From: an uncultured archaeon
Lineage (GTDB): Archaea > Aenigmatarchaeota > Aenigmatarchaeia > GW2011-AR5
DNA length: 64,000 nt
NCBI GenBank assembly: GCA_964373695.1
Contig: CAYJVT010000002.1
Coordinates: forward strand, 1,020-65,019
Reading direction: 5' to 3'
A program made the position numbers and the translations under genes. The notes beneath the pieces are model-generated. The model saw only the letters and a list, made by a program, of their open reading frames with translations. It did no database searches and was not told where the DNA came from. Every line of letters begins with the position of its first letter. Position 1 is the stretch's first letter. Of this stretch, positions 11,950-45,726 are shown piece after piece.

Positions 11950-14900
11950 ATGGCAGAACAAGATCGTACAATAGAAGATATAAAAAACGATATTTTGAGT
12001 GAAAAAAGAAATATCAAGAGGAGACTACAAAGTGATGAAGACCCTAGACAAATTGCAGAACAACTCATCTCTAGATACGCATTACGCAATCCACATATTA
12101 CCAATAGGGATTGGATTCATGATGGTGTAGTTTCTGCTATTAATGAGATAATAGGAGAAACTACTGGCACTACAATTGGTGGTGGCCACCCAAAATATAA
12201 CCCCTTACAACATCGTGGCCCTCATTATATAGAAGAAAAACACTTTGTGGTAAAGATACTTCAACCGAATCCGCATAATCCTAGGGAAAATAATATAGAA
12301 CTTCATCAAGAGCCTACAACAGGACAGCAGTTTCATGAAAAAATTGTCTTCGATGCAGAGGTTACAGGCGGCAAAGGACCCTTTAGATATAAATGGGAAG
12401 TCCAGGTATCTGGACAGGGATTTACTACTTGGATTCACTTCTGGCCTTACGATAAAAATGGAATTGCTTATGACTGGAGTGATGAAGTTGACAGCAGGGA
12501 TTATAAATTCTTCAAGGGCGGCCTAGATACCATAAGGAACAACTTCCACTATGCCCAGCCGCTTCATGCCACCCATATGGATGACCCGTGGGCAAGCCTG
12601 CCTCCAGGAACTTATAGGGTGCGCGTAACAGTCAGGGATAGCACAAGAAAAGAAGCCCAGGCGGAAACGACTTTCACCGTCGGCGGCCTGATACCGGATA
12701 AAAATTACATAAAAGCCCATATAACAAGCCCTGCGGAATCCGGACACATCAAGGAAATAGAACTGCATACGGACGTGTCAACAGGGGACCGGTGGCACGA
12801 GGCTGTAACATTCAACTGCGAGGTCACGCACGGCATCACGCCCTACACGTATGAATGGAAGATAGACAACCATACCGTATGGCAGGGCACGAACGACATG
12901 TTCAAAACGTTCCAGAGAGGCGGGCAGAAAAATCCTGTCGCAGAGCCCAATAACTCGGATGCAAACCTTGACATACCGGCCGCAAGCCTCACGGAAGGCA
13001 GGCATGAAATCGTGCTGACAGTCACCGACAGAAGGAGAAATACCGCGACAGCAAAATGTTTCCTGATAGTCACATCAAAGCCAAGGGGGAAAATGCGTGC
13101 TGTAATAACACAGCCGAGAGATGAAGACCCAAAAAAAACTTTCGGCAAAGAGCTCAAGGGGGAAAAGGAAGAATCATATCACGAGCCTATAACATTCGAC
13201 TGCGAAGTTTCCGGCGGCTCCGGCAACTACGACTACAAGTGGACTGCCACTTCAATGGATCAGGATCTCAACGAAACTTCGGCTGAAGTCCCGCTAAATT
13301 TCGTGAGCCGGAAAACTTTCACGAGAGGCGGGCAAACGCATCCTGTAAATAATGAAAACGACCCGCAGGCAAGCCTTAGCGAAGGCCTGTACCAGATAAC
13401 ACTCAAGGTCACCGACATAAACAACACGAACGAAACTGCAGAAGCAACAACATGGATACGCATCGGCGAGGAGGAAGGCACTCATGCGCGCTCCCTTTCA
13501 TCGTACGTCGGGATGAGGCCGGCAGCGGCGCGCATAGGGGGCGGCTGGGCGGGCGGGCCCAGGGGTGCTTACACGAGGCGGCAGGCCATGACAGGAATAG
13601 GAGAACGGGCCATGCACAGGGTGCAGCATCCCATGTCGGGCTCGGGCAGAGCCCTCGGTTTCATCAGAAGCGAGAAGAAGGAAGGGACAGGAACATGGGG
13701 CAAAGAGGGCATCCGCGGAGCTATAAGGTCCAATATTGCAGTGCAATCGGCAGTAAACCAGGGAAAGCGCGAGCTCAACAGGTGGGCCAGGCAGATGTTC
13801 AGCCCGGAATTCCAGAGGCTTCAGCGCGAACTAAGAACCCTCACGGATACATGGAGGAGAAGGAGAAGGGAATGGGTTGATGTAAGAAACCAGGCAAGAA
13901 GGCAGTATGGCAGGTGGAGGGATTATCTTAAAGGGCAGGGGGGAGCTGATGCCCTGACAAATTCAGTCACTATCGCCCAGCAGCGCGGACAGGTAAACGA
14001 GGTCCAGGCCAGGCTCCTCATAGACCAGATAAACCAGGCTTACAACAGGTTCACGAAATCCGAGGAGGAGCTGCTGAATTTCAGCCACAGCAAAGCCAGT
14101 GAATTGCAGACAACCATAAATAACAGGATGGAAAAGGTTGCAGAACAGGTTGCAGGCCGCATCATCTACAGGTTCAAGATAAAAGACGGGGCCGCACAGG
14201 ACGATATAAAAAGTGAGCTGAAAGGAGAGGCCCAGAAAATCGCAACAAGCATGGTGGAGAAGGGCAGGGACACCCTATCGGGGCCGCTTGGAATGATAAG
14301 AAGCGCCTCCATGGGAGCAAAAACGGTAGGCGCCTCCTACTACAGCTTCTGGGAATTCTGGAGGGAAATACTGACAGCACCTTTCATATGGGGAACGCTG
14401 TTCGCAGTCGTCCAGTATTTCTTCATACTTACATATGTAGGCTACAATCCGACATACCTTCTGATATATCCGATAATAACGGCTTTATTCACTTTTCTAG
14501 TTTACTTCGGGGACCTTTTCGAGGGCGGGGCGCGGCCTTTTGACCTGTTCAACCATTTAGCATCGGGTGCCATCATCGGGTACACGGCAGTGCTGCTGAT
14601 GCTGGCCTTCGGATTCCAGACTTTTGTCAGCACCGGATGGTTCTGGGGGATATGGATATTCTTCAGCCTTATCGGCATCTTCCAGTTCTACCATTCAGGC
14701 GGATTCAGGATAGTGCTCCAGGGCGGCGTCATAATCCTCCTCTTCGCGTACATAGCGATGGGGCCGTACTCGGGATACTATCAACAGGTCATAGACCAGG
14801 TAAGAGGGCCTGTTGTCGTCGCGTACGATGCGGTGGAGAAGACGGTCGGCGACGTCTACCTGCTGGCAACGAACCCGACGGAGTGGTACGCCAGGCAGCA

Positions 14901-17034
14901 GGTCCAGAATGTAAGGCCGGAGAAGTCAACTGTCGCGGCGCGGGGACTGGAGATCACGCTGTTCGACGCGCTGCCTGCGAGCGTGCCGGCCGGGCAGCAG
15001 TTCGCAGTTACAGCTGTCCTGAAGCACGAAGGCGTGCTGGACAACGTCACCGACATGAAAGTGGCGTTCTCGTGCAATCAGTGGTGCCTAATTGACGGCG
15101 TCACTGCCACTGATAAAGGCGTAAGCAGGACAAGCAAAGGGGCTTTCATGATAAATAATGCCGTGAATGGCCAGAGCATCCTGCTGAAGGGCGAATCAAT
15201 GGTGGCATCGTTCTCCGGCTTCATTTCAAAATCAGTGACCAACAGGGAGAACGAGTACAGGCTGGCAAAGGTCACGATGAACGTTTCGTACAAATACTCA
15301 ACAACAAGCTCGCTCTTCGTCGAGGTGGTAAACAGCGAGGAGCTCAACAAGAGGACCAACGAGGGAAAGAACTTCAGGAACGTGGTCGCGATAGGCAAGA
15401 ACGGCCCGGCGCAGCTTTCGCTGAACGTGGGACCGCAGCCCCTGATTGCCGGGAAGAACGCTCTGCTGCTTGTGTCCGTATCGAATTCGCGCGACGACAG
15501 TTCCGTAATACTGAATGAAGGAAGCGAAATCACGATAAGGATGCCGCGTTCAGTCGGCAGCGGACTGAACTGCGACGGATTTGTCCATGAAGAGACGGAC
15601 GGATATCCGGACATTACCGGCGTGGAGGTCGTGAGGTACAAAGTCTCGCCGAAGACAGCCGACAGGGTGGAGATAAAGGCCTCGGACTTCAATTCCATAT
15701 TCCCGTTCATATGCAGCTTCACGGCAAATGAAGTACGCGGCGCCGGCCCGCTCACGCAGACAGGGCTCGTGACGGCAGAACTGCCTTCATACGAGTTCAC
15801 GGTCATAAAGGAGAAGGAAGTGCCGGTAACAGTGCCGCTAGGCATCCTGTTCGACTCCAATGAAAGGATTTGCCGTGGAGCCTCAGGCCAAGCCGAATGC
15901 ATCTCGCTTGACAAATGCTATTATGAGGATAAGGGAGCCGCAGAAAGCTCCCTGCTCAGCGACTTGTGCCACTCTTGCGCTCAGGAGCCTACATGCGACC
16001 AGTTCATGTCGCAGGAAAGCTGCGAGCAACAGTCAGTATCGCAGTGCGGCCTCTCCAACTGCGGCTGGGATGCCGACGCGAGGAACGAGATAGGCGTGAC
16101 GACAGGCAAGTGCTTCCAGAAGCCCAACCAAATAAACGGTAACGTGAGGAACGCAATACTTTCAGGCACAATAATTGAAAAAATAATACAGGCGTCGAAA
16201 GCCGCCGGATTTGACAGGGAAGATACGAAGAGGGTGCTTGCCGTGGCGGCGCAGGAGAGCGGATTCAGGATGGTCTCCGGAGACGGCGGCGATTCGGCAG
16301 GAGTTTTCCAGCTGAATAAAAGAGCACATCCGACATGGTTCGACCCCCTGCTGTCCGGATGTCCAGACGGCCAAACCGCCTTAGATGAGGACTGCAACAT
16401 CAAGCTTGGCGTTGACTTCATCAAGAGCCTGCACATCCAGTATTTCAACGACAACCCAAGAACTTATGCCTGTGAGAGAGTATACAGCGGTTGGAACGCA
16501 GTTTTCAGATATTATAATGGATGGAACTCGCCATCCACATGCAATGATTTGACAGTAAGTTATGTAGAGAAAGTAAACGGGTGGCTCACATGCAGGGACA
16601 AGGCAAGCTGTGTTGAAAATGCGATAGTCAGGAATATCGATGATGTACGCGGATATGAGAACTTGATGGAAGCCGTATTCGCAGGGAAAGGGAGTGTGGA
16701 TTTCTGCAGGGAAGCCAGAATCGATATAAACAACAAGGCAAACAGCTGGTCATATGGACAGGGATTGTGTATAGAAGGGGAGGGAGGATGCGAAGGGGAC
16801 GGGCAGTGCGGCAAGCTGTTTAAAGACGTCAGAATAGACACCTCAGGCGTCTGCGTGAAGCCTGGCCATGATAATTATGACGATGTTGCGCATCAATTCG
16901 TGAATGCAGGAAAACTCCAGAGCGGCGCCGGCATCTGCTGCTATTCAGATGAAAGCGGCAACATAAATGCAAACAGGTGCAAAGCCGCTTACAGCCAGTG
17001 GTTCGGCTCATCGCCGTTATTCTCCACTGTATAA
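11950..17034 (+). CDS. Giant (1694 aa) multidomain membrane protein: 3 PKD-like repeats, Gly/Arg-rich linker, multi-TM block, beta-rich ectodomain, lytic-transglycosylase (SLT/GH23)-like domain, Cys-rich tail
   Basis: Three ~130-aa repeats with CEV(T/S)GGxGxYxYKW ... G(T/R)YxVxLTVTD (PKD-like). Five or six TM helices around aa 790–930. SLT signature AVAAQESGF...GDSAGVFQLNK...YSGWNAVFRYYNGWNS. Many Cys in CxxC/CxC arrangements C-terminally. Confidence 0.85.
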   Translation: MAEQDRTIEDIKNDILSEKRNIKRRLQSDEDPRQIAEQLISRYALRNPHITNRDWIHDGVVSAINEIIGETTGTTIGGGHPKYNPLQHRGPHYIEEKHFVVKILQPNPHNPRENNIELHQEPTTGQQFHEKIVFDAEVTGGKGPFRYKWEVQVSGQGFTTWIHFWPYDKNGIAYDWSDEVDSRDYKFFKGGLDTIRNNFHYAQPLHATHMDDPWASLPPGTYRVRVTVRDSTRKEAQAETTFTVGGLIPDKNYIKAHITSPAESGHIKEIELHTDVSTGDRWHEAVTFNCEVTHGITPYTYEWKIDNHTVWQGTNDMFKTFQRGGQKNPVAEPNNSDANLDIPAASLTEGRHEIVLTVTDRRRNTATAKCFLIVTSKPRGKMRAVITQPRDEDPKKTFGKELKGEKEESYHEPITFDCEVSGGSGNYDYKWTATSMDQDLNETSAEVPLNFVSRKTFTRGGQTHPVNNENDPQASLSEGLYQITLKVTDINNTNETAEATTWIRIGEEEGTHARSLSSYVGMRPAAARIGGGWAGGPRGAYTRRQAMTGIGERAMHRVQHPMSGSGRALGFIRSEKKEGTGTWGKEGIRGAIRSNIAVQSAVNQGKRELNRWARQMFSPEFQRLQRELRTLTDTWRRRRREWVDVRNQARRQYGRWRDYLKGQGGADALTNSVTIAQQRGQVNEVQARLLIDQINQAYNRFTKSEEELLNFSHSKASELQTTINNRMEKVAEQVAGRIIYRFKIKDGAAQDDIKSELKGEAQKIATSMVEKGRDTLSGPLGMIRSASMGAKTVGASYYSFWEFWREILTAPFIWGTLFAVVQYFFILTYVGYNPTYLLIYPIITALFTFLVYFGDLFEGGARPFDLFNHLASGAIIGYTAVLLMLAFGFQTFVSTGWFWGIWIFFSLIGIFQFYHSGGFRIVLQGGVIILLFAYIAMGPYSGYYQQVIDQVRGPVVVAYDAVEKTVGDVYLLATNPTEWYARQQVQNVRPEKSTVAARGLEITLFDALPASVPAGQQFAVTAVLKHEGVLDNVTDMKVAFSCNQWCLIDGVTATDKGVSRTSKGAFMINNAVNGQSILLKGESMVASFSGFISKSVTNRENEYRLAKVTMNVSYKYSTTSSLFVEVVNSEELNKRTNEGKNFRNVVAIGKNGPAQLSLNVGPQPLIAGKNALLLVSVSNSRDDSSVILNEGSEITIRMPRSVGSGLNCDGFVHEETDGYPDITGVEVVRYKVSPKTADRVEIKASDFNSIFPFICSFTANEVRGAGPLTQTGLVTAELPSYEFTVIKEKEVPVTVPLGILFDSNERICRGASGQAECISLDKCYYEDKGAAESSLLSDLCHSCAQEPTCDQFMSQESCEQQSVSQCGLSNCGWDADARNEIGVTTGKCFQKPNQINGNVRNAILSGTIIEKIIQASKAAGFDREDTKRVLAVAAQESGFRMVSGDGGDSAGVFQLNKRAHPTWFDPLLSGCPDGQTALDEDCNIKLGVDFIKSLHIQYFNDNPRTYACERVYSGWNAVFRYYNGWNSPSTCNDLTVSYVEKVNGWLTCRDKASCVENAIVRNIDDVRGYENLMEAVFAGKGSVDFCREARIDINNKANSWSYGQGLCIEGEGGCEGDGQCGKLFKDVRIDTSGVCVKPGHDNYDDVAHQFVNAGKLQSGAGICCYSDESGNINANRCKAAYSQWFGSSPLFSTV

Positions 17035-26509: not shown

Positions 26510-26595
26510 TGGGCTCGGCAGGAATTGAACCTGCGGCCTCCTGCGTGTGAAGCAGGCGTCATACCAATGTCCGCGATGCTCTAGACTACAAGCCC
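26510..26595 (-). tRNA. tRNA-Val(CAC) with ~13–14-nt D-loop intron
   Basis: Minus-strand GGGCTTG...CGAGCCC acceptor; anticodon arm CCTGC-TTCACAC-GCAGG; T-arm GCAGG-TTCAATT-CCTGC. D-region is 30 nt instead of 17 (GTC-TAG[AGCATCGCGGACAT]TGGTAT-GAC). Confidence 0.8.
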
Positions 26596-27200: not shown

Positions 27201-27209
27201 ATTATTAAT

Positions 27210-27368
27210 GGGCCGGATGAGATTTGAACTCACGACTTCAGTCGGCGGAACCTTCCGGATGCCGCCGTCTCCTGTTGGCTTAGAGCAATATTTTGTTCTT
27301 GATGCACGCATGTTTTAACAAAATACGTCATATAAGACAGGTGCTCTACCAGCCTAAGCTACCGGCCC
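27210..27368 (-). tRNA. Intron-containing tRNA (tentatively Ile, anticodon UAU), about 159 nt with two inserts
   Basis: Acceptor GGGCCGG/CCGGCCC; D-arm GCTT-AGGCTGGTA-GAGC; anticodon stem CCTGT...ACAGG enclosing 61 nt (loop CTTATA + ~54-nt intron); T-arm GTGAG-TTCAAAT-CTCAT; discriminator A. A further ~32-nt hairpin insert lies between the anticodon stem and T-stem. Confidence 0.7.
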
Positions 27369-31254: not shown

Positions 31255-31695
31255 ATGAAGGGCCAGAACCAAATAATAAATGAAGTGCTTCTTTTTGCCA
31301 TAGGAATGTCAATAGCGGCCGCTGTCATAATAAACTTCCAGACGGTCCAGAGAACGTCAAGCGAAACGACAATATACAGCAACTTTGAAAACGTTGCCAA
31401 CACCGTGATAAACGGGATAACCGAGGTCATAAAAAGCGAAAGGGGCAAAGTCGTGGTCGCCATACCAGACACCATAGCCTCGATCCAGTACAAGATAAAG
31501 GTATCGTCCGACTACCTAATAATATCCAGCATAAATGACCCGAAAATTAATATCACGAAGAGGCTATTTAATATATCCAGCAGCCATATTATACAGGGCG
31601 AGGTTCCCAGCGCTTCAAGATACATCGAAATAACGTACGAAACTACGCCATTCACCAAGCTCGTGAGGATAAAAAGGGCGGAAAAATATGTCTAA
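31255..31695 (+). CDS. Archaeal type-IV pilin-like protein
   Basis: MKGQNQIINEVLLFAIGMSIAAAVI class III leader. Confidence 0.65.
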   Translation: MKGQNQIINEVLLFAIGMSIAAAVIINFQTVQRTSSETTIYSNFENVANTVINGITEVIKSERGKVVVAIPDTIASIQYKIKVSSDYLIISSINDPKINITKRLFNISSSHIIQGEVPSASRYIEITYETTPFTKLVRIKRAEKYV

Positions 31696-33670
31696 GACAA
31701 TAACCATAAACGGCAGGAAAGTCAGACTGAATGGCCGCCAAGACAGCAGCTACGGCATGAAGGTTTCTGGCCACAAAGTTGTCATAAAACATAGAATAGA
31801 GAAAGGTCATGAAGAAATAGAAGAACTGAAAAATAAGATAAAGACCCTAGAGAAAAAGATAGAGGAAAAGAACAGAAGATTACCGGTAAGGATAGAGTTG
31901 AGGAAAGAGGAACAGAAGAACGAAATTTCCCCGGACGAAATAAGGAATCTCATAAAAGAAGAACTCTCGTACATGTCGCCGAAGGAGCAGCCCGTTCTAG
32001 CACAGAAAAGGAAAATACGCGTCAGGCTGGCCGGCATGATGCCGTCGGTGACTCCGGCCTCGTCAGCACAAATATCCGGAAAAATATCAGTGGAAACTCC
32101 GTCTACCAGAACAGAAACCGTCGAAGGTATAGAAATACCAGACATCGTCTCAGAAAGATACGACACCGACGAGGCATTCGACCCATCATCCGTGTCCATG
32201 AAATATCCGCTTATCCCGAAGAACCCGAAACAGGGGGGAAGGGTCTATTCCTACGCCGAGATATTCTTCGACAAGATGTCCGGGGAGATGATATACAAAC
32301 TCCACGAGCCGGAGCTCAATGACGGGACTAAAATTTTCCTGAACGATATAAAGGACTACATACAGGAAAAGATAGACGTGAATTTCGGCCATATAAAGAA
32401 GGAAGACGCAGTCGGATATATGATGAATGTCTTTGACAAGGCCATCCGGTTCCTCAGAATAAAGACCGACGAAAGGACGCTGGACGACATAAGATACTAT
32501 ATTGTAAGGGATTTCATAGGACTTGAGAAGATAGAACCCCTTCTCCAGGACTCGCAGATAGAGGACATCTCATGCGACGGCATAGGCATACCTATATTCG
32601 TGTACCATAGGAACAGCAAAATAGGCTCCATAAAAACCAACATCAAGTTTGACGACATGGAATCTCTGGACTCCTTCATCAACAAACTGGCCGAAAGGTG
32701 CGGCAAATCAGTCTCCGTGGCAAAGCCCCTGCTTGACGGATCGCTCCCTGACGGGAGCAGAATCCAGGCCACGCTTGGAAGCGATATCGCCAGGCATGGA
32801 AGCAATTTCACCATAAGGATGTTCACTGAAAAGCCGATAACCCCGATAGACATCATAAAAACCGGGATGTGCGACCCCAAAATCATGGCAGCCATGTGGT
32901 TTGCAGTGGAATACCAATCGTCCATCCTCGTATCCGGCGGGACTGCCACTGGAAAGACCTCCCTCCTGAACGCATTCTCGCTTTTCATAAAACCCCAGAT
33001 GAAAATAGTCAGCATAGAAGACACGGCTGAACTGAGGCTTCCACATTCCCACTGGGTGCCGGAAGTCGCAAGGGTATCCATATCTTCCGGCAGGGAGGTC
33101 GACATGTTCGAGCTCCTCAAGGAATCGCTAAGGCAGAGGCCTGACTACATAATAGTAGGCGAGGTCAGGGGAAAGGAAGCCTACGTCCTTTTCCAGCAAA
33201 TGGCCACGGGACATGCGGGCTTCTCGACAATACACGCGGACAACTTCCAGAAACTTGTGGACAGGCTGACAACGCCCCCGATAGAGCTGCCCCCGAATCT
33301 CCTCGAGAATCTGGACTTCGTGGTGTTCATAAGCAGGTTCAAGCACGGCAACAAATACAAGAGGAGAATCAGCTCAATAACAGAGATCACCGGAATAGAC
33401 AATATCAAGAAAGCGCCTATCGTAAACGAAATCGTAAAATGGAACCCCAGAAACGACCTGTTTGATATAAAAAGCGGTAGCACCGTTCTCAAGAAAATAT
33501 CCGAGAGGTCCAATATGACACCGAAGGATGTGCAGGAAGAAATAAGGAGAAGGGCGCAGATACTCGAATGGATGGCAAAAAAGAACATAAATGATTACAG
33601 GAAAGTATCATCCATCATAAACCTGTACTATCTTTCCCCCGAATTCGTTATGAAGAAAATGGGTGTCTGA
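31688..33670 (+). CDS. Type-IV pilus/archaellum assembly ATPase (FlaI/ArlI–TadA/VirB11 family) with long N-terminal extension
   Basis: Walker A GGTATGKTS; Walker B/Asp box DYIIVGEVRG; His box ATGHAGFSTIHAD. The ~120-aa coiled-coil/charged N-terminus is not found in canonical FlaI. Confidence 0.9.
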   Translation: MSKTITINGRKVRLNGRQDSSYGMKVSGHKVVIKHRIEKGHEEIEELKNKIKTLEKKIEEKNRRLPVRIELRKEEQKNEISPDEIRNLIKEELSYMSPKEQPVLAQKRKIRVRLAGMMPSVTPASSAQISGKISVETPSTRTETVEGIEIPDIVSERYDTDEAFDPSSVSMKYPLIPKNPKQGGRVYSYAEIFFDKMSGEMIYKLHEPELNDGTKIFLNDIKDYIQEKIDVNFGHIKKEDAVGYMMNVFDKAIRFLRIKTDERTLDDIRYYIVRDFIGLEKIEPLLQDSQIEDISCDGIGIPIFVYHRNSKIGSIKTNIKFDDMESLDSFINKLAERCGKSVSVAKPLLDGSLPDGSRIQATLGSDIARHGSNFTIRMFTEKPITPIDIIKTGMCDPKIMAAMWFAVEYQSSILVSGGTATGKTSLLNAFSLFIKPQMKIVSIEDTAELRLPHSHWVPEVARVSISSGREVDMFELLKESLRQRPDYIIVGEVRGKEAYVLFQQMATGHAGFSTIHADNFQKLVDRLTTPPIELPPNLLENLDFVVFISRFKHGNKYKRRISSITEITGIDNIKKAPIVNEIVKWNPRNDLFDIKSGSTVLKKISERSNMTPKDVQEEIRRRAQILEWMAKKNINDYRKVSSIINLYYLSPEFVMKKMGV

Positions 33671-38159: not shown

Positions 38160-38657
38160 ATGATAAAGAAAATCAGAATACCGGATGAAAGGATACCGGT
38201 TCTCATAGGGAAGAATGGAAAAACTAAAGCCATGATACAGAGACTGACGCACACAAAAATCGACATTGGGGAAGAAGCGACAGTGGAAGGCGAGGCTGTG
38301 GATGTCATGACCGCAGAGAGCATCATAAAAGCCATCGGCAGAGGATTCTCACCGGAAGCTTCAGAAATCCTGTGCAGGGAAGACAGCACGCTGGAGATAA
38401 TCCAGCTCCCGAAAGAGAGAAAAGAATTAAATAGGATAAAATCAAGATTAATAGGAACCAAAGGGAAGTGTAGGAGGAACATAGAAAACCTTACCAAAAC
38501 CCGCATATCGGTCTTCGGAAAGACAGTTTCGGTCATAGGTCCGTACGATAACGTGAGGTTTGTGGTAGAGGCGCTTCAAAGACTTATAAAAGGCGACACA
38601 CACAGTTCCGTTTACAGGTTTCTGGAAGAGAACCAGGAAAAAATGAATTTTGAGTAA
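38160..38657 (+). CDS. KH-domain RNA-binding protein (Dim2/Pno1-like)
   Basis: Two KH units with IPVLIGKNGKTK and LIGTKGKCRRNIE GxxG loops. Start set at MIKKIRIPDER; the upstream in-frame part overlaps aIF1A. Confidence 0.7.
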   Translation: MIKKIRIPDERIPVLIGKNGKTKAMIQRLTHTKIDIGEEATVEGEAVDVMTAESIIKAIGRGFSPEASEILCREDSTLEIIQLPKERKELNRIKSRLIGTKGKCRRNIENLTKTRISVFGKTVSVIGPYDNVRFVVEALQRLIKGDTHSSVYRFLEENQEKMNFE

Positions 38658-41600
38658 GCCGGTGATGATCATGTCAAAGAAAACCGCGGAAGACTTCGCG
38701 AAGCAACAGAAGGAAATAAGCATATCAGAATTCTTTGAAAAGAACAAGCATCTTCTTGGCTTTGACAATCCGACAAAAGCCCTTCTCATGGCTGTGAAAG
38801 AAGCTGTCGACAATTCTCTTGATGCATGTGAAGAGGCCGAGATACTTCCTGACATAACCGTGAAAATAAAAAACCTGAAAGAAGATGTATACAAAGTATC
38901 GGTTCAGGACAACGGTCCGGGAATAGTGAAAGAACAGGTTCCGAGGATATTCGGCAAATTGCTCTATGGCTCTAAATTTCACCGATTGCGCCAGTCCAGA
39001 GGTCAGCAAGGAATTGGGATATGCACAACACCAGATACTTTAATACCTCTTGCAGACGGGCGCATAAAAAGGATAGAAGATATCGTAGAGTCGGAATTAG
39101 AAGAGGAAATATTTACACTCGCACCGGACATGAAACTAGTGCCAAACAAAATGAAAAAATTCTGGAAATTACCTGCGCCGGAAAAAATGATAAAAATAAA
39201 AATGCTCGGGGGCGGGAGCCTGACACTAACAAGAGAGAATCCTGTGCTAATAAAGACAGATTTCGGCTTAAACTGGAAACCCGCTGAGCTTGTAGCGCCA
39301 AGAGATTATATTGCTATGGCAAGAAATCTCTCTATAAATCATAATGAAAAAAAGATTCCACTTATCAGTTTGCTGGATGAAAATGTGCGTGTTGACAACT
39401 ACGAATTTCTTAGTGAAGTGCTGAGTATTTTGAAAAAAAGACATGGTACATGGTCTAAATTAGGAAATATATACGGCCTGCAAAAGGATCTTCTGAAGGG
39501 GTGGAAAAAGATGGGCATCAGAAGACGTCCAACACTAAAACAATATATTATGCTAGCTAAAGATGCAGGCTTCTCTGAAGATTATATAACAGAGAGCATA
39601 ATACGGGTTGGCAGGCTTGGGACTTATATAAAAATTTTTCGATATATGACCCCTGAACTAGCACGTCTCGCTGGCTTGGTGGCTGGCGATGGTAATATCC
39701 AGGCAAAGAGAAAAAACAGATGGGGTACAAACATATCTTTCTGGAATAATGATACAAAACTTATAGAAGAGTTCTGCAGCATAGTTTACAATTTTTTTGG
39801 TATAAGACCGAATGTTTATGCCCATACAAAAGGCCGCGGGACAGGGGCACAATTCTCGTCCTCAATAGTTGCTGATATTTTAGAAAAACTCGGTGTCCCA
39901 AGAGGTAGAAAAAGCGAGAAATTTGAAATCCCTGATTTGATACGACAAAACGGAGATCTGTCTGCTGCTTATCTTGGGGGGTTGTTTGATGCAGAAGGCT
40001 CTGTCAGCAGCGACAGAAAATGCATAACTCTTATGCTGAGTAACAAAAATGTAATCAATGTCATACGTCTTATGCTTCTTAGATTTGGCATAGTAAGCAG
40101 GATTAATAAAGCAGGAAAACATACAAGATTAATTATATCATCTGCGAAAAATGTAGAAAAATTCAAGAATATAATAGGCTTTACAATTAAGACAAATAAA
40201 GCAAAATTAGATTCATTAAAATTCTATAATGACAGAAAATGCAATCTTGAAGTCATACCGCATGTTAAGTATGCTGTTAAAAATTCTGTAAAAGAGATCG
40301 GTACCAGTTATTATGCTTTAAGAAGCCCAAATGAAATTTCTTCTATAAGAAGAGGCAGTGCAGTAAGCCATGAAACTCTTAATTCTTTATGTGAAGTGCT
40401 TGTTGAAAATTCCGGGGAAAGACTACCGCTTCCAGTACAAGAACTTGTAGGAATGGCGAATGCTGATGTAACATGGGCAAAGGTAATAGAAACAAAAGAA
40501 ATTGACTCTCCATGTGAATATGTTTATGACATAACTATGGGCATAGGTAATAATTTCGTAGCAAATGGGTTTGTAATACATAATTCAGCCGTTGTCCTGT
40601 ATTCGCAGCTTACCACAGGAAGCCCTACACGAGTTCTTTCAAAGACCGATGAAAAGAAAAAAACCCAGGCGTTTGAACTCATAATAGATACCAAAAAAAA
40701 CGAGCCTGAGATAGTAAAACATGAGGAAAAAGAAGACGGCATACAAGGCACCGGCATAAGGGTTGAGATGGATGTAGTCGGCAGGTACAGGAAGTCACAG
40801 GGAGTGGATGACTATCTTAAGCAGACTTCGATATCGAACCCGTTTGCAAAAATCTCATACAATGCGCCAGACGGGACGAAGATGCTATTTTCGAGGACTG
40901 TCAACGAGCTTCCCGTCCCGCCGAAGGAAATAAAGATACATCCATACGGCGTCGAGTTCGGCATTCTGCAGAGATTCCTCAACCAGACGAATTCGCGCAC
41001 TTTGCAGGCATTCCTCGTGAACGAATTTTCATCCGTTGGCCAGCAGACAGCGAAAGAAATGTGCAATATAGCAAAGCTTGACCCTAATATGAAACCCATT
41101 GACCTGTCAAGAGAGCATATCGAAAAGCTCCTTGGCGCGATGCAAAAAGCAAAGGTGCAGAGGCCGCCTCTCGACTGCCTTTCCCCCATAGGGGAGAAGG
41201 AGCTTGAAAAGAGCCTGAAAAAAGAATATCCGGATGCTGAATTCATAACAACCCTAACCAGGTCGCCTGAAGTCTACAGAGGCAACCCTTTCCAGATAGA
41301 AGTCGGCATAGTCTACGGCGGGCCTGATATAAAATCTGACGGGCCGATAGAAGTTATAAGGCTCGCGAACAGGGTGCCGCTGCTGTATCAGGCCGGTGCA
41401 TGCGCCACGATGGAAGCCATAAAGGAAGTCGACTGGAAGAGATACGGCCTCCAGCAGTCTGGCAATAATTTGCCGATAGGGCCGGTGATACTTGTCGTTC
41501 ACATGTGCTCCGCGTGGGTACCGTTCATATCCGAGAGCAAGGAGGCGATAGCATCCTATCCCGACATAATAAAAGAGATGAAACTCGCTGTACAGGATGC

Positions 41601-41811
41601 CGGCAGGAATCTCTCAAGGTACCTCTCCGGGAAAAGGCGAGCTGGCGATGCCAAGAGGAGAATACAGATATTTGAAAGGTACAGCGCCGAAGTTGCATCT
41701 GCGGTGTCTCTGCTTACAAAAAAATCCGAGAAAGACATAGAGAAAAAACTAAAAAACATGATAGCCCAGAGGACGCATATAAAAGATGAGGAAGAGAAGC
41801 AAGAAATATAG
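38650..41811 (+). CDS. top6B: DNA topoisomerase VI subunit B, interrupted by a 521-aa intein
   Basis: Bergerat-fold ATPase motifs EAVDNSLDA, DNGPGI and GKLLYGSKF...SRGQQGIG|C, then the C-extein with transducer domain. Extein total is about 532 aa. Confidence 0.9.
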   Translation: MSKPVMIMSKKTAEDFAKQQKEISISEFFEKNKHLLGFDNPTKALLMAVKEAVDNSLDACEEAEILPDITVKIKNLKEDVYKVSVQDNGPGIVKEQVPRIFGKLLYGSKFHRLRQSRGQQGIGICTTPDTLIPLADGRIKRIEDIVESELEEEIFTLAPDMKLVPNKMKKFWKLPAPEKMIKIKMLGGGSLTLTRENPVLIKTDFGLNWKPAELVAPRDYIAMARNLSINHNEKKIPLISLLDENVRVDNYEFLSEVLSILKKRHGTWSKLGNIYGLQKDLLKGWKKMGIRRRPTLKQYIMLAKDAGFSEDYITESIIRVGRLGTYIKIFRYMTPELARLAGLVAGDGNIQAKRKNRWGTNISFWNNDTKLIEEFCSIVYNFFGIRPNVYAHTKGRGTGAQFSSSIVADILEKLGVPRGRKSEKFEIPDLIRQNGDLSAAYLGGLFDAEGSVSSDRKCITLMLSNKNVINVIRLMLLRFGIVSRINKAGKHTRLIISSAKNVEKFKNIIGFTIKTNKAKLDSLKFYNDRKCNLEVIPHVKYAVKNSVKEIGTSYYALRSPNEISSIRRGSAVSHETLNSLCEVLVENSGERLPLPVQELVGMANADVTWAKVIETKEIDSPCEYVYDITMGIGNNFVANGFVIHNSAVVLYSQLTTGSPTRVLSKTDEKKKTQAFELIIDTKKNEPEIVKHEEKEDGIQGTGIRVEMDVVGRYRKSQGVDDYLKQTSISNPFAKISYNAPDGTKMLFSRTVNELPVPPKEIKIHPYGVEFGILQRFLNQTNSRTLQAFLVNEFSSVGQQTAKEMCNIAKLDPNMKPIDLSREHIEKLLGAMQKAKVQRPPLDCLSPIGEKELEKSLKKEYPDAEFITTLTRSPEVYRGNPFQIEVGIVYGGPDIKSDGPIEVIRLANRVPLLYQAGACATMEAIKEVDWKRYGLQQSGNNLPIGPVILVVHMCSAWVPFISESKEAIASYPDIIKEMKLAVQDAGRNLSRYLSGKRRAGDAKRRIQIFERYSAEVASAVSLLTKKSEKDIEKKLKNMIAQRTHIKDEEEKQEI
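39022..40584 (+). mobile_element. Intein with LAGLIDADG homing-endonuclease domain in top6B
   Basis: Begins with Cys directly after GIGI. LAGLVAGDGNI and LGGLFDAEGSV dodecapeptides. Ends VANGFVIHN with +1 Ser. About 30% GC against ~45% in the exteins. Confidence 0.85.
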
Positions 41812-41821
41812 GTAGTATATA

Positions 41822-44506
41822 ATGCCGCAAAAAAACGTGGGCGCGGAGCTGAAGAAACTCGGCGAATCCGTGCTAAACCATATAGAGAAAGGCGAGAACC
41901 CGAACATAGACATACCGCTAAGAACATTGTCCAACGTGATATTCGACAAAAAATTAGGGCAGCTTACCCTCGGCGGCAAGAGCGCCAAAAGGTACTTCTT
42001 CAATGTTGCCCACTCAAAAAAGTTCATGCAGACCCTTATGGTGGCAGGATTCTGCAATTCCCTTCTCGAAGAAGGCATACATACCAGCATAAGAGACATG
42101 TACTACAACCTCAAGCGGACGCTTCCGCAGAGCGATGAGAATACTTTCGATGAGCAGAGCGAGAGTATTTGCCCTGATGAGCCCCTGCTTGTCAAAATGG
42201 ACGGAGACCTCAGAATTTTGAGCGGAGAAGACCTCATGAGACATGCGGAAAAATCCGGGAAGGTAATATACGACAAAAACGGCAAGAAAAGAATCGTCGG
42301 GTTAGACCTCTATACCTATGCGTTTGATGAAAACCAGAAAATAAGAGAACAGAAGGTATCAATGGTCATAAAGCATCCCTCAAATAAAATCAAGAAAATA
42401 AAAACCTCCTCCGGAAGGGAAGTAAAAGTAACAAAGTCTCACAGCTTATTTACTCTTAAAGACGGGAAAGTAACTGAAATAAAAACAAATGAACTCAAAG
42501 AGGGCGACATGATAGCCCTTCCGAGAAAAATTTCTATAAAAGAAAACAACAAGCCAATAAATGTCATCGATAGCCTTCTTAGAAATGCTCCAGATGATGT
42601 TGTAAAGCTGTTCTATGTGAAGTCAGACAAAGACACAATAAATGAAGTAATAAAGAGGGTGGGAAAGGAGAGAATACGAATTTTTTCTTCGAATAATTAT
42701 AAAAATATATGGAGCGATGTAAAAGCTAACTGGAAGCATTGGAACACAGTCCCTATAGAGATTTTAAGGGACGTAGATTTGTCCGACATATTATCTAAAT
42801 TAAAAATCGGCGGCAGGGGATCTAGGCACTATTATAATGTACTGATAAACAAGGATTCCAGCTTGGGCTTTGTTCTTGGATTTCTCATTAGCGAGGGCTC
42901 TCATTCTATATTTGAGGGTAGGAATTCAAGATACGTATCCATAAGCAATAAATCAAAGATGCACCTGCAAAATTTCTGGGATGCATTCAAGCACTCGTTT
43001 GGAGAGACAACGGATGGTAATATCATATTGGGCAAAGATGATGTGTATAAGCTAAACATAGGGTATGATACACTTAGCTATATCCTTGAGTATGTTATAG
43101 GCTATAAACCTGTGAGGGCGTGGGAAAAAGAGGTTCCACATGTTATTCTCGATGCACCTCAAGATTGCATAAAGGAATTTCTGAGAAGCTTTAGGCTTGG
43201 AGATGGAAGCGTATTCGAAGGCAAAATGCTTGTAAATGGCTTGGTTTTTCTGCTGCTAAGGCATGGAATATTCCCCAGAATATATCACTATAAAATATCT
43301 GAAAAAAATCCGAACCATAAAGATGCATATGAAATCAGAATTGGCCCGAGGGAATATGTCAAAAATATGGCTCAGATAACACATGATTTCATGGGTATAG
43401 ACATAGAAAAAACAAGAGATTTCTCTTCAGACATGATACCAAACGTAGGGAGCCTTCTTCTAAAGACCAGAAAATCCTGTGACAGGCAAGGCATAGTTTA
43501 CAGAGAAAGAAATATAGGATGGAATTATATCGAGAACAAAAACAGCGTAAGCAGACTTCTTTTAAATAAAATGTCAAAGATATTGGATTCTTACGGCGCT
43601 TCGCAGCATTATTTAGATGAACTAAATGAACATGTAGAAAGCGACATATATTGGGATAGTATAATATCAATAGAAGACGACGAAATGCCGCCTTACACGC
43701 TGGATCTGGCTGTTCCGCCACATGAAAATTTCATAGGCGGGAACGGTCTTCTGATGCTTCACAATTCCGACCCGCTTATAGTCGATCTGGAAGTAGCACT
43801 GGACGTCTTAAGAGAGCAGCTGCACCTGACAACCGACAGGAAGGGAATAGTCGCAGGCAATGTCGTGATAGAGGACAGAGGCGACAGCATAGACTGGTCA
43901 AAGCTCGGGAGCGGCGGATGGTCGATACCGAGCACAGTTGACGAAATCAAACTCAAAAAGGTGGACGCAAAATTTGTTCTTGTTTGTGAAAAAAATGCCG
44001 GCTTCGAGCGCCTGCACGAGGACAAGTTCTGGCAGAAGCAGAAATGCATATTGGTCGGGACAGGAGGCCAGCCGTCAAGAGGCGCCAGACTTCTGATACA
44101 GAGATTGAATTCTGAATATGACCTGCCTGTTTATGTATTTTGCGATAACGACGCCTACGGCTTTTATATTTATTCAGTGATAAAATCCGGCTCGATAAGC
44201 CTTGCGCACGTTTCAGACAGAATATCGACACCGGAAGCTAAATTCATTGGGCTGACAACATCTGACATCTATGATTATAACCTCAAGAAATGCACGATAA
44301 AACTCAAGGAAGTTGACATAAAGCGCGCCAAGGAGCTGCTGGAATATGAATGGTTCAAGAAGAACCCCAAGTGGCAGAAAGAAATAAACCTCATGCTTGA
44401 AAAAGGCGTGAAAGCCGAGATAGAGGCGCTCTCTCACAGGGGTCTTAAATTCATGTCAGAGGAATACCTGCCGGACAAAATCAAGAAAGGCGATTTTCTC
44501 GATTAA
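41822..44506 (+). CDS. top6A: DNA topoisomerase VI subunit A (Spo11 homolog), interrupted by a 532-aa intein
   Basis: N-extein ...MYYNLKRT...FDEQSESI. C-extein carries Toprim (VLVCEKNAGFERL..., DNDAYGFYIY). Extein total is about 362 aa. Confidence 0.9.
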   Translation: MPQKNVGAELKKLGESVLNHIEKGENPNIDIPLRTLSNVIFDKKLGQLTLGGKSAKRYFFNVAHSKKFMQTLMVAGFCNSLLEEGIHTSIRDMYYNLKRTLPQSDENTFDEQSESICPDEPLLVKMDGDLRILSGEDLMRHAEKSGKVIYDKNGKKRIVGLDLYTYAFDENQKIREQKVSMVIKHPSNKIKKIKTSSGREVKVTKSHSLFTLKDGKVTEIKTNELKEGDMIALPRKISIKENNKPINVIDSLLRNAPDDVVKLFYVKSDKDTINEVIKRVGKERIRIFSSNNYKNIWSDVKANWKHWNTVPIEILRDVDLSDILSKLKIGGRGSRHYYNVLINKDSSLGFVLGFLISEGSHSIFEGRNSRYVSISNKSKMHLQNFWDAFKHSFGETTDGNIILGKDDVYKLNIGYDTLSYILEYVIGYKPVRAWEKEVPHVILDAPQDCIKEFLRSFRLGDGSVFEGKMLVNGLVFLLLRHGIFPRIYHYKISEKNPNHKDAYEIRIGPREYVKNMAQITHDFMGIDIEKTRDFSSDMIPNVGSLLLKTRKSCDRQGIVYRERNIGWNYIENKNSVSRLLLNKMSKILDSYGASQHYLDELNEHVESDIYWDSIISIEDDEMPPYTLDLAVPPHENFIGGNGLLMLHNSDPLIVDLEVALDVLREQLHLTTDRKGIVAGNVVIEDRGDSIDWSKLGSGGWSIPSTVDEIKLKKVDAKFVLVCEKNAGFERLHEDKFWQKQKCILVGTGGQPSRGARLLIQRLNSEYDLPVYVFCDNDAYGFYIYSVIKSGSISLAHVSDRISTPEAKFIGLTTSDIYDYNLKKCTIKLKEVDIKRAKELLEYEWFKKNPKWQKEINLMLEKGVKAEIEALSHRGLKFMSEEYLPDKIKKGDFLD
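42170..43765 (+). mobile_element. Intein with LAGLIDADG homing-endonuclease domain in top6A
   Basis: Starts CPDEPLLVKMDG. LAGLIDADG-like LGFLISEGS and FRLGDGSV. Ends GLLMLHN with +1 Ser. Exact N-terminal junction is ±1 residue uncertain. Confidence 0.8.
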
Positions 44507-44527
44507 TTTTATTCTTTTTAAATGTCT

Positions 44528-44565
44528 AAAATTCCACCATCTATCGTATAAATATGGTGGAATTT
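44528..44565 (+). terminator. Perfect 12-bp inverted repeat hairpin followed by T-run
   Basis: AAATTCCACCAT-ctatcgtataaat-ATGGTGGAATTTT immediately after the top6A stop. Confidence 0.5.
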
Positions 44566-44573
44566 TAACATGC

Positions 44574-44601
44574 AAATCCACTGTTTTCAAACAGTGGATT
44601 T
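44574..44601 (+). terminator. Second hairpin (AAATCCACTGTT-ttcaa-AACAGTGGATTTTT)
   Basis: Perfect inverted repeat followed by a T-run, between top6A and tRNA-Asn. Confidence 0.5.
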
Positions 44602-44632
44602 TTAAACATTCCATAAAATGTTATTCTACACT

Positions 44633-44789
44633 GCCTCGGTAGCTCAGTACAAATCCCTTCTTTGTAAAGAAGGTCTTGGTGAACCCCAAGAAACTATTAT
44701 ACAATGGATAGGGAGAAAGGTAAGCAGTCTCTACAAAGAGCATTTGGCTGTTAACCAAAGGGTCGACGGTTCGAGTCCGTCCCGAGGCG
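44633..44789 (+). tRNA. tRNA-Asn(GUU) with ~83-nt intron in the D-loop
   Basis: Acceptor GCCTCGG/CCGAGGC; D-stem GCTC...GAGC separated by ~92 nt; anticodon arm TTTGG-CTGTTAA-CCAAA; V-loop GGGTC; T-arm GACGG-TTCGAGT-CCGTC; discriminator G. Confidence 0.85.
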
Positions 44790-44879
44790 CTTTTTAATTA
44801 ATGAAAATAAGGGGAAAAGAGGTGAATAAAAGATTCAAAAACCGTTTTAATAAAAGAAATGAGTTTTCGTGTCTGGGTT

Positions 44880-45011
44880 GGGAAGGTAATCTTAATTGCT
44901 AATTAATTAAGACCTTAAGTTCAGCCTGGGAGAACACACAGAATATGTAAAGTATTCTGGTTCAAACGGCTGAAGACCGTGACGTCGAGGGTTCAAATCC
45001 CTCCCTTCCCA
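44880..45011 (+). tRNA. tRNA-Phe(GAA) with two ~30-nt introns (acceptor/D junction and anticodon-stem position ~27/28)
   Basis: Acceptor GGGAAGG/CCTTCCC; D-arm GTTC-AGCCTGGGA-GAAC; reconstructed anticodon arm CACGG-CTGAAGA-CCGTG; V-loop ACGTC; T-arm GAGGG-TTCAAAT-CCCTC. 132 nt − 74 nt mature = 58 nt, matching the two inserts. Confidence 0.8.
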
Positions 45012-45141
45012 TACAAGTCAAGCTTTTAAGCATCACGCCAATATTCAACACAGAAGAGGGTATAGAGGAACAGGGAACTGTTTCTCGTCCTGCTTCTTAA
45101 AAGACCCAAGAGCCCTTCTCTTGGACTGAAGAGGTGTTTTC

Positions 45142-45726
45142 ATGTCAAAAGAAGATAAAGAAGAGGCCGCTAGCGAGCTGCCGCCGGAGAAGGTAAAGAA
45201 CATACCCACGACCTTGGAAGAGAGCAAGGTCATATCCACCAAGGACTGGCAACAGGTATACGAGCCCGGATACTACGGAAAGCAGATAGGCGAGCGTCTT
45301 GAGCTTGCTCTGGTGGAAGCCGTGCTCCTGCTTAAAAGAGGCAGGATAGAGGTGTTCAGGGAAGGCAAGAGCATGAGCTTCAAGGAACTCTATGAACATG
45401 CCGCATCTCTTGACAAGAGGTTTGTTGAAAGATACCGCGTATATGAAGACCTGAGGGAAAGGGGGCTCTTGGTCAGGACAGGCTTCAAGTTTGGCTGCGA
45501 TTTCCGCGTGTACGAAAGGGGAGTGCAGCTGAAGAAAGGCCCGAAAAGCGCCAAGGAGCACACCAAATGGATAGTATTCTGCGTGCCGGAGGATTTCACG
45601 ATGTCTTTCCAAGAGCTTTCCAGGTCTGTAAGACTTGCCCATAATATAAGAGCAAGAATGCTCTGGGCAATTGTCGACAATGAAGGGGACTGCACATATT
45701 ACATCATCCAGAGAATGAAGCCCTAG
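45142..45726 (+). CDS. endA: tRNA-splicing endonuclease, catalytic subunit (EndA)
   Basis: C-terminal catalytic domain RTGFKFGCDFRVYE ... HTKWIVFCVPED (Tyr/His/Lys triad context). About 194 aa with an N-terminal domain. Confidence 0.85.
   Translation: MSKEDKEEAASELPPEKVKNIPTTLEESKVISTKDWQQVYEPGYYGKQIGERLELALVEAVLLLKRGRIEVFREGKSMSFKELYEHAASLDKRFVERYRVYEDLRERGLLVRTGFKFGCDFRVYERGVQLKKGPKSAKEHTKWIVFCVPEDFTMSFQELSRSVRLAHNIRARMLWAIVDNEGDCTYYIIQRMKP

Follow-up and report, generated by a model that had tools for sequence, protein, structure and literature searches.

In a 64-kb stretch of contig CAYJVT010000002.1 (assembly GCA_964373695.1, positions 1,020 to 65,019), which derives from an uncultured archaeon and is called the window throughout, the two genes of topoisomerase VI (Topo VI), top6B and top6A, have very probably each been invaded by a full-length intein of class 1 in which a double-motif LAGLIDADG homing endonuclease is nested. 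Inteins equipped with a homing endonuclease are self-splicing and self-propagating protein elements, and as such a familiar type of selfish element. The two genes are neighbouring open reading frames (ORFs), and in both of them the Topo VI domains recognized by Pfam are interrupted by intein domains. In top6B, the N-terminal Bergerat ATPase (HATPase_c) is followed by Intein_splicing together with LAGLIDADG_3 and then by the C-terminal Topo VI-B transducer, and the order in top6A is TP6A_N, Intein_splicing, LAGLIDADG_3, Topo_VI_alpha and the Top6A/Spo11 Toprim domain. The matches to Intein_splicing have E values of 2e-19 (top6B) and 7e-25 (top6A), with bit scores for PF14890 of 70.3 and 88 against a cut-off of 35.8, while the endonuclease region of both inserts matches PF14528 (LAGLIDADG_3; E values of 5e-24 for top6B and 4e-8 for top6A). 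Large LAGLIDADG inteins in both genes had been proposed in an earlier note made from the sequence alone, and this proposal was borne out by the Pfam results, by sequence matches in the PDB and by AlphaFold2 modelling followed by Foldseek comparison.

The coordinates of the two precursors, their inteins and the individual motifs are collected in Table 1. A nucleophile stands at both splice junctions of each insert, namely Cys1 and Ser+1 in the top6B intein and Ser1 and Ser+1 in the top6A intein. Both inteins end in the His-Asn pair of block G (H520-N521 and H533-N534), which is invariant in the orthologues and is followed by serine, as had been read from the sequence in the earlier note. Block A of the top6A intein corresponds to SICPDEPLLVKMDG. 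In the top6B intein, C1, E72, N73, P74, E325, H520 and N521 are invariant in the orthologue alignment and D223 is conserved to at least 90%; in a 20-sequence alignment of the top6A intein, the same holds without exception for S1, H93, E244, D347, D514, H533 and N534. Two LAGLIDADG motifs were found in each intein, in agreement with the earlier reading.

Table 1. Topoisomerase VI precursor genes, inteins and intein motifs (positions are those of the window).
Feature	Coordinates	Strand	Basis and remarks
top6B, Topo VI subunit B precursor	38650..41811	+	ORF; 1053 aa counted from TTG; HATPase_c and Topo-VIb_trans around intein domains
top6B intein, 521 aa, precursor residues 125-645	39022..40584	+	Cys1...His-Asn, then Ser+1
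top6B intein, non-canonical block B, T70-R-E72-N73-P74	39229..39243	+	Asn at usual His B:10 position
top6B intein, LAGLIDADG motif 1, LAGLVAGDG, catalytic Asp223	39667..39693	+	Alignment; Pfam LAGLIDADG_3
top6B intein, LAGLIDADG motif 2, LGGLFDAEG, catalytic Glu325 invariant	39973..39999	+	Alignment
top6B intein, blocks F and G (VYDITMGIGNNFVANGFVIHN), end His520-Asn521	40522..40584	+	Alignment
top6A, Topo VI subunit A / Spo11-family precursor	41822..44506	+	ORF, 894 aa; TP6A_N, Topo_VI_alpha and TOP6A-Spo11_Toprim around intein domains
top6A intein, 534 aa, precursor residues 115-648	42164..43765	+	Ser1...His-Asn, then Ser+1
top6A intein, block B T90-K-S-H93, canonical	42431..42442	+	Aligns with PI-PkoII TSGH; H93 invariant, T90 nearly so
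top6A intein, LAGLIDADG motif 1, VLGFLISEG, Glu244 invariant	42872..42898	+	Alignment
top6A intein, LAGLIDADG motif 2, FLRSFRLGDG, Asp347 invariant	43178..43207	+	Pfam, alignment
top6A intein, blocks F and G (TLDLAVPPHENFIGGNGLLMLHN), end His533-Asn534	43697..43765	+	Alignment

Comparison with solved structures leads to the same picture. All sequence matches of the two inteins in the PDB are themselves inteins: PI-PkoII for the top6A intein (E value of 2.6e-24), and the CDC21-1, RadA and VMA inteins for the top6B intein. AlphaFold2 models, computed from the orthologue alignments and searched against the PDB with Foldseek, reached a predicted local distance difference test score (pLDDT) of 89.5 and a predicted template modelling score (pTM) of 0.90 for the top6B intein, and 90.8 and 0.91 for the top6A intein. 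The top match of both models is PI-PkoII (2cw7), with template modelling (TM) scores of 0.68 and 0.71, respectively. Target-normalised TM scores to solved inteins span 0.63–0.82 over both models and, for the TliVMA intein (7qss), amount to 0.77 (top6B intein) and 0.82 (top6A intein). Further matches are PI-PfuI (1dq3) and PI-SceI, followed by free-standing LAGLIDADG enzymes and mini-inteins. The alpha-beta-beta-alpha-beta-beta-alpha endonuclease fold was matched to I-DmoI, I-SceI and I-Tsp061I with target-normalised TM scores of about 0.6–0.74 for the top6B intein and 0.42–0.65 for the top6A intein.

The insertion sites were defined from the splice junctions and from comparison with intein-free proteins. 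The top6B junctions read ...RGQQGIGI↓CTTPDTL...NGFVIHN↓SAVVLYSQ (the arrow marks the splice junction), which places the insertion directly after the GxxGxG G2 box (GQQGIGI) in the ATP lid, corresponding to the I117/S118 boundary of Methanosarcina mazei Top6B. These junctions and the length of 521 residues are as claimed in the earlier note. Spliced in silico, Top6B joins without a gap against M. mazei Top6B (2q2e_B; RGQQGIGISAAVLY; E value of 1e-147 over residues 11–511), and the junction is identical to that of intein-free orthologues. The top6A intein lies inside the conserved motif F(D/E)EQxE↓SDP, 20 residues past the RDMYY motif of the active-site tyrosine, and its junctions, obtained by MAFFT alignment against intein-free orthologues, are FDEQSE↓SICPDEP...LLMLHN↓SDPLIV. 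Because intein words dominated the candidate list, the full Top6A precursor as query drew intein-containing proteins only; the intein-free top6A sequences were taken from loci adjoining intein-free top6B.

The insert in top6A had likewise been recognized before, but its N-terminal boundary had to be revised: the intein comprises 534 residues from a serine, and not 532 from a cysteine, as follows from the alignment with intein-free orthologues. Position 1 is Ser in 26 out of 26 orthologous inteins at the same site, whereas position 3 is variable (C, D, T, S, A or H). In its 534-residue form the intein pairs its first residue with that of PI-PkoII (SICPDEP versus SILPEEW) and continues to align through the terminal His-Asn. 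Given the invariance of Ser1, the variability of Cys3 and this end-to-end alignment, the predicted nucleophile is Ser1. The alternative, Cys117 of the precursor (nucleotide 42170), was ruled out, as it would leave two surplus residues relative to every intein-free Top6A and occupies a position that varies. With the boundary set at Ser115 of the precursor, both spliced proteins are colinear without gaps with the relatives at loci L001 and L002. Spliced Top6A matches 2zbk_A over residues 17–361 (E value of 3.5e-87), and removal of the two inteins leaves a complete Topo VI, with the Bergerat ATPase and transducer in subunit B and the 5Y-CAP and Toprim domains in subunit A. The presence of blocks A, B, F and G, the Pfam scores above cut-off, the matches to solved inteins, the superposition of the models and the colinearity restored by excision thus support the assignment of both inserts as bona fide inteins with nested LAGLIDADG endonucleases; lineage-specific extein domains devoid of these blocks are excluded, since the blocks are present.

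On this basis, a conventional sequence of events can be proposed. The long precursors of 1053 (Top6B) and 894 residues (Top6A) would be translated, and the first residue of each intein, Cys1 in Top6B and Ser1 in Top6A, would attack the peptide bond preceding the intein. The N-extein would then pass to Ser+1, and the terminal Asn, helped by the penultimate His, would cyclise and free the intein. The joined exteins, 532 residues for Top6B and 360 for Top6A, would assemble into the A2B2 enzyme, while the freed inteins would act as site-specific endonucleases that cleave intein-free alleles at the positions of insertion, where repair would copy the inteins in (homing). As both insertions interrupt highly conserved motifs critical for catalysis, the ATP-lid G2 box in Top6B and the motif just past the active-site tyrosine in Top6A, Topo VI should be inactive unless both precursors splice, so that two independent splicing events would be needed. 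One may speculate that this double requirement is exploited for the regulation of Topo VI.

The relatives of the window offer natural comparisons. The order eIF-1A, KH-domain protein, top6B, top6A, ..., tRNA-intron endonuclease, CBS protein and GlyRS is conserved among them, and the syntenic loci, together with the window, display four intein states: neither intein, the top6A intein only, the top6B intein only, and both. The window carries both. Neither intein is present at L001, whose exteins are 75% (Top6B) and 82% (Top6A) identical to those of the window, at L002/L003 (73% and 83%), or on the contig carrying P0012. L004/L005 (GCA_016187335.1) has only the top6A intein, 56% identical to that of the window, with exteins at 74% (Top6B) and 81% (Top6A) identity. 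L006 (GCA_021163145.1) has only the top6B intein, 48% identical to that of the window, with exteins at 54% and 53%. The nearest exteins (Top6B 73–75%, Top6A 81–83% identity) are thus mostly without inteins, and the search for intein-free top6 alleles suggested in the earlier note met with success at the syntenic loci of the closest relatives. The empty homing sites code for identical or near-identical peptides, and the differences in their DNA are mostly synonymous. Close kinship of the two inteins in the window, which had also been raised, did not emerge, as they share 21% identity (E value of 3e-5); this value rules them out as duplicates of each other. Their low identity and their separate occurrence in relatives show that they were acquired independently.

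Beyond these loci, the Topo VI of DPANN archaea stands out as a hot-spot of inteins. In the DPANN data, inteins occupy at least four sites in Top6B, one in the N box (DN↓S), one at RQ↓S, that in the G2 box (GIGI↓S) and one in the transducer (E↓C), and some of the proteins carry two inteins and reach about 1550–1630 residues; the Top6B homologues concerned are P0004, P0010, P0038, P0066 and P0093. Top6A also has at least four sites (P0147–P0159), including one directly before the Toprim Glu (↓C/V-EKNAGF) and one within the DxD motif. The nearest relatives of the top6A intein outside Top6A, at 24–27% identity, reside in the T2SSE/PilB-type ATPases P0160 and P0161, which are of the type IV pilus/archaellum type, in the anaerobic ribonucleotide reductase P0162 and in the PolII large subunit (DP2) P0165. 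The T2SSE gene of the window itself (31688–33670) has no intein.

The top6B intein has an unusual block B, which had been overlooked in the earlier note. The histidine at position B:10, present in the top6A intein as H93, is absent. HMMER alignment pairs N73 of the top6B intein with the His of TPSHP in the Pho RadA intein and of TPTHP in the CDC21-1 inteins, and the three residues E72, N73, P74 do not vary among 13 Top6B inteins that occupy the same site and are only 32–48% identical to that of the window. A profile-free exhaustive search with the top6B intein returned 3209 relatives. In the best 150 of these, the position of N73 is taken by His in 79 of the matched domains, by Thr in 70 and by Asn in 20, and the domains with His are mostly lower-scoring matches to other inteins of the same multi-intein proteins. 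Five of the nearest relatives outside Top6B were examined for their hosts: four reside in minichromosome maintenance (MCM) proteins and one in an archaeal helicase. The alignments therefore place the top6B intein in a putative clade common with MCM inteins, with the block B His (B:10) replaced by Asn. Block F also has Asn (GNNF) where many inteins have His.

In a 2014 review, His B:10 was termed the most conserved intein residue, and only two natural exceptions were given, a pseudogene and the MCM intein Tko CDC21-1, which splices without this residue and compensates via Lys58 (PMC4031507). A bulky residue at position −1 can also compensate for the missing His, and the Tko CDC21-1 group has Leu there (PMC6333167). 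At the top6B junction of the window the −1 residue is Ile, and in L006 it is Val. The residues 22–23 past N73 fall in R94-D95-Y96, which is variable among orthologues and, judged by eye, offers no conserved Lys; a conserved basic residue (K78/R) and W85-K86 are found in the vicinity. Given that all other defining features are present and that a functional precedent exists, we treat the top6B intein as a variant within the intein family despite the missing His B:10. Its splicing would follow the class-1 pathway, but with compensation at the N-terminal step. This compensation may come from the invariant Glu72-Asn73-Pro74, from the bulky beta-branched residue at −1 (Ile, or Val in a relative), or from both.

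The two inteins also stand out by their base composition. Their GC content, 37.2% (top6B) and 38.1% (top6A), lies below the 47.0% of either extein pair and the 47.9% of the whole window, and they are the two 1.5-kb stretches of lowest GC in the 64 kb. The earlier note was right to set the inteins below their exteins, but its lower figure of 28% is a local 300-nucleotide minimum. The GC content at third codon positions (GC3) is 0.305 in the top6B intein and 0.403 in the top6A intein, versus 0.623 (standard deviation 0.058, minimum 0.488) in 21 other genes, and the difference between each intein and its own exteins is significant by Fisher tests (p = 2e-16 and 5e-9). The gap lies at synonymous or third codon positions, with little difference in amino acid composition.

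Several points nevertheless weigh against the view that both genes were invaded by active, homing inteins. Both splicing and endonuclease activity are predicted from conservation. The inteins are more diverged than the exteins that surround them (56% versus 81% identity in one relative and 48% versus 54% in another), and values of this kind do not discriminate between horizontal homing and vertical inheritance accompanied by loss. The orthologous top6A inteins in all four other hosts that were fetched are AT-richer than their exteins, with intein/extein GC3 values of 0.30/0.60, 0.41/0.63, 0.21/0.38 and 0.46/0.56; in a host of 28% GC, the intein equals its host in GC and the bias vanishes. Finally, loss of His B:10 blocks N-terminal activation in many inteins, which makes a splicing-impaired top6B allele conceivable, and the only natural His-less example besides Tko CDC21-1 in the cited review is a pseudogene (PMC4031507). 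The invariance of the Glu-Asn-Pro triplet, of C1 and of the HN↓S junction across orthologues of only 32–48% identity nonetheless argues strongly against impaired splicing.

Low GC thus characterizes the whole family of these inteins in each of the moderate-GC hosts examined. We read it as an AT bias typical of mobile elements, or as a trace of circulation among AT-rich DPANN archaea. It fits the lifestyle of a mobile element and is compatible with homing, as had been said in the earlier note, but it does not constitute specific evidence of a recent invasion at this locus. Since the orthologous inteins of other hosts share the bias, it cannot serve as a clock here; in view of the same intein-below-extein GC3 gap in four other hosts, the idea that it specifically demonstrates a recent arrival by horizontal transfer was rejected.

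The shared bias, the greater divergence of the inteins relative to their exteins and the lack of any copy more than 65% identical to either intein among the sequences found outside the genome of the window would also fit inteins that still splice but whose endonucleases are dead, that is, vertically inherited passengers late in the homing cycle whose low GC reflects mutational decay and not mobility. We regard this as unlikely, although it is the most serious of the competing explanations. The catalytic Asp and Glu residues of both motifs are kept, invariant or nearly so, across orthologues of 32–55% identity, the models of the endonuclease domains are of high confidence, and the coding sequences show no frameshifts, stops or deletions. 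Mini-inteins, the expected products of decay, are not what stands here. Moreover, the patchy occurrence among equally distant relatives fits continuing gain and loss.

A harsher possibility, that the top6B allele is non-functional because an intein without His B:10 cannot splice and that a different type II topoisomerase serves the cell instead, is very improbable. It gains some credit from the pseudogene just mentioned and from the extent of the window, since 64 kb represents only part of a genome and a gyrase could be encoded elsewhere. However, the exteins are intact, their flanking motif is unaltered and they share 73–75% identity with the exteins of relatives without the intein, and the invariance of E72/N73/P74, C1 and HN↓S in 13 diverged orthologues points to purifying selection for a functional active site. 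Related MCM inteins commonly have Thr or Asn at the position of His B:10, and Tko CDC21-1 splices without it (PMC4031507). The notion that the inserts are lineage-specific Topo VI domains retained in the mature enzyme can be set aside almost entirely: each is large and in frame, and that of top6B has no canonical block B His, but both exceed the Pfam intein cut-off, have Cys or Ser at position 1, a terminal His-Asn and Ser+1, resemble PI-PkoII, TliVMA and PI-PfuI in their predicted folds and are missing from the closest syntenic orthologues, with which excision gives exact colinearity, and a domain of about 520 residues in the G2 box or beside the catalytic Tyr would be expected to disrupt catalysis.

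Invasion of both subunits by full-length inteins therefore stands as the preferred explanation, and a broader proposal may be added to it, which we consider possible but doubtful. The top6B intein could represent a sizeable undescribed archaeal clade, comprising the Top6B G2-box site and MCM, in which His B:10 has been permanently replaced by Asn or Thr and N-terminal activation would proceed via the invariant Glu-Asn-Pro and the beta-branched −1 residue, unlike in Tko CDC21-1 with its Lys58, the only exception characterised. In addition, as no enzyme would form before both subunits have spliced, the paired inteins could act as a two-key post-translational gate for Topo VI activity.

Among known systems, PI-PkoII, the Pol-2 intein of Thermococcus kodakarensis, is the closest match of the top6A intein in both sequence and structure. 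The two share Ser1, the T-x-x-H of block B, the terminal His-Asn, the double LAGLIDADG core and nearly the same length (537 versus 534 residues), and the SILPEEW start is a feature of PI-PkoII and related inteins of family-B DNA polymerases. They differ in the host protein (DNA polymerase B versus Top6A/Top6B), in the insertion site, in sequence (about 22% identity) and, necessarily, in endonuclease specificity. PI-SceI, PI-PfuI and the TliVMA intein are the archetypal intein homing endonucleases. The inteins of the window share their bipartite architecture of a Hint splicing domain that a LAGLIDADG endonuclease interrupts, plus a DNA-recognition region. Foldseek E values lie between 1e-10 and 1e-24 for the top6B intein (PI-SceI reaches only about 1e-6 with the top6A intein), but their identity to them is 10–17% and hosts and target sites are different.

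For the top6B intein, MCM (CDC21) inteins are the nearest relatives outside Top6B, and CDC21-1 inteins give its best PDB sequence matches. It shares with Tko CDC21-1 the lack of His B:10 (PMC4031507) and a bulky aliphatic −1 residue (PMC6333167). On the other hand, the MCM relatives mostly have Thr at B:10, whereas the top6B intein has Asn in the invariant Glu-Asn-Pro context, and host and site are different; since inspection by eye shows no conserved Lys 22–23 residues past B:10, it may not use the mechanism of Tko CDC21-1 that depends on Lys58. Top6B is an established intein host, with 15 archaeal cases (PMC4760082) and a haloarchaeal top6B allele (PMC4071816) on record, and these inteins share with the present one the host protein and the targeting of conserved nucleotide-binding motifs in enzymes of replication and topology. 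For Top6A, the searchable literature yielded only a passing remark that some Top6A/Top6B sequences contained inteins (PMC9348778). Database records of intein-bearing Top6A exist, some of them labelled 'hypothetical protein' or 'LAGLIDADG family homing endonuclease'.

The current understanding of inteins is unchanged by these findings, and the Glu-Asn-Pro block without His B:10 is the only feature of specialist interest, the inteins being otherwise known in kind. Both genes should be annotated as intein-containing precursors, with the boundary of the top6A intein at Ser1. The locus provides a clean natural case of an essential heteromeric enzyme in which both subunits are invaded at catalytic motifs, and the four presence/absence states in syntenic relatives are suited to the study of homing dynamics in DPANN archaea. 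In addition, the clade of the top6B intein supplies many natural sequences without His B:10 and hence a route to understanding how the N–S acyl shift is activated without His, while the top6A intein, with Ser1/Ser+1 and no cysteine at the splice junctions, is of a type sought for protein engineering.

The named relatives of the Top6A and Top6B proteins are metagenome-assembled genomes of Aenigmarchaeota, Nanoarchaeota and Woesearchaeota, by which the host is identified as a DPANN (Aenigmatarchaeota-like) archaeon. Proteins identical to those of the window are encoded on a public contig of 73 kb. The start of top6B is ambiguous: the TTG at 38650 gives the longest ORF and overlaps the upstream KH-domain gene, which ends at 38657, and an ATG lies at 38671. 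The public, 100% identical Top6B protein P0001 has 1046 residues and begins at this ATG, 7 codons downstream, and the orthologues align from there. As for further inteins in the window, a phmmer search with both inteins against six-frame ORFs of at least 50 residues found only their own genes, which is a weak test given that the two inteins miss each other; nor did Pfam detect intein domains in the largest ORFs of the window (1694, 940, 660, 572, 552, 548 and 500 residues).

The region downstream of top6A contains several RNA features. Directly past the stop codon, at 44522–44606, there are two perfect hairpins with stems of 10–13 base pairs, ATTCCACCAT...ATGGTGGAAT and AAATCCACTGTTT...AAACAGTGGATTT, which look like terminators or a small structured RNA; Rfam gave only weak matches to unrelated families for them. 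The D-arm region of a tRNA-Asn(GTT) gene at 44631–44790 (+) apparently contains an insert of about 85–90 nucleotides, which would interrupt the gene at a position non-canonical for introns. The visible parts of the gene are 5' GCCTCGG-TA-GCTCAGTA ... AGAGC-ATTTGGCTGTTAACCAAA-...GGTTCGAGTCC...-CCGAGGC. It was missed by ARAGORN and scored 26.9 bits with Rfam, below the gathering score; once the insert was removed in silico, ARAGORN reported tRNA-Asn(gtt). The gene lies just upstream of the tRNA-splicing endonuclease gene (45142–45726). A second tRNA-like gene at 44878–45012 (+), also missed by the tRNA finders, has two inserts when read by eye and comprises the acceptor GGGAAGG/CCTTCCC, the D arm GTTCAGCCTGGGAGAAC, the anticodon stem-loop CGGCTGAAGACCG (GAA, Phe) and the T arm GAGGGTTCAAATCCCTC. 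The window carries these two split tRNA-like genes where L001 has an IS200/IS605-type Y1 transposase (5359–5784, −) and a NUDIX gene between top6A and the tRNA endonuclease gene.

Elsewhere in the window, all three tRNAs that were detected are over-long, at 27209–27368 (−; 160 nucleotides, found by Rfam and not by ARAGORN), 6696–6787 (+; 92 nucleotides) and 26510–26595 (−; 86 nucleotides), which suggests that they contain introns. The ORF of 1694 residues at 11950–17034 (+) has weak, sub-threshold matches to immunoglobulin (Ig)-like, PKD, REJ and SprB repeats and probably encodes a large surface protein.

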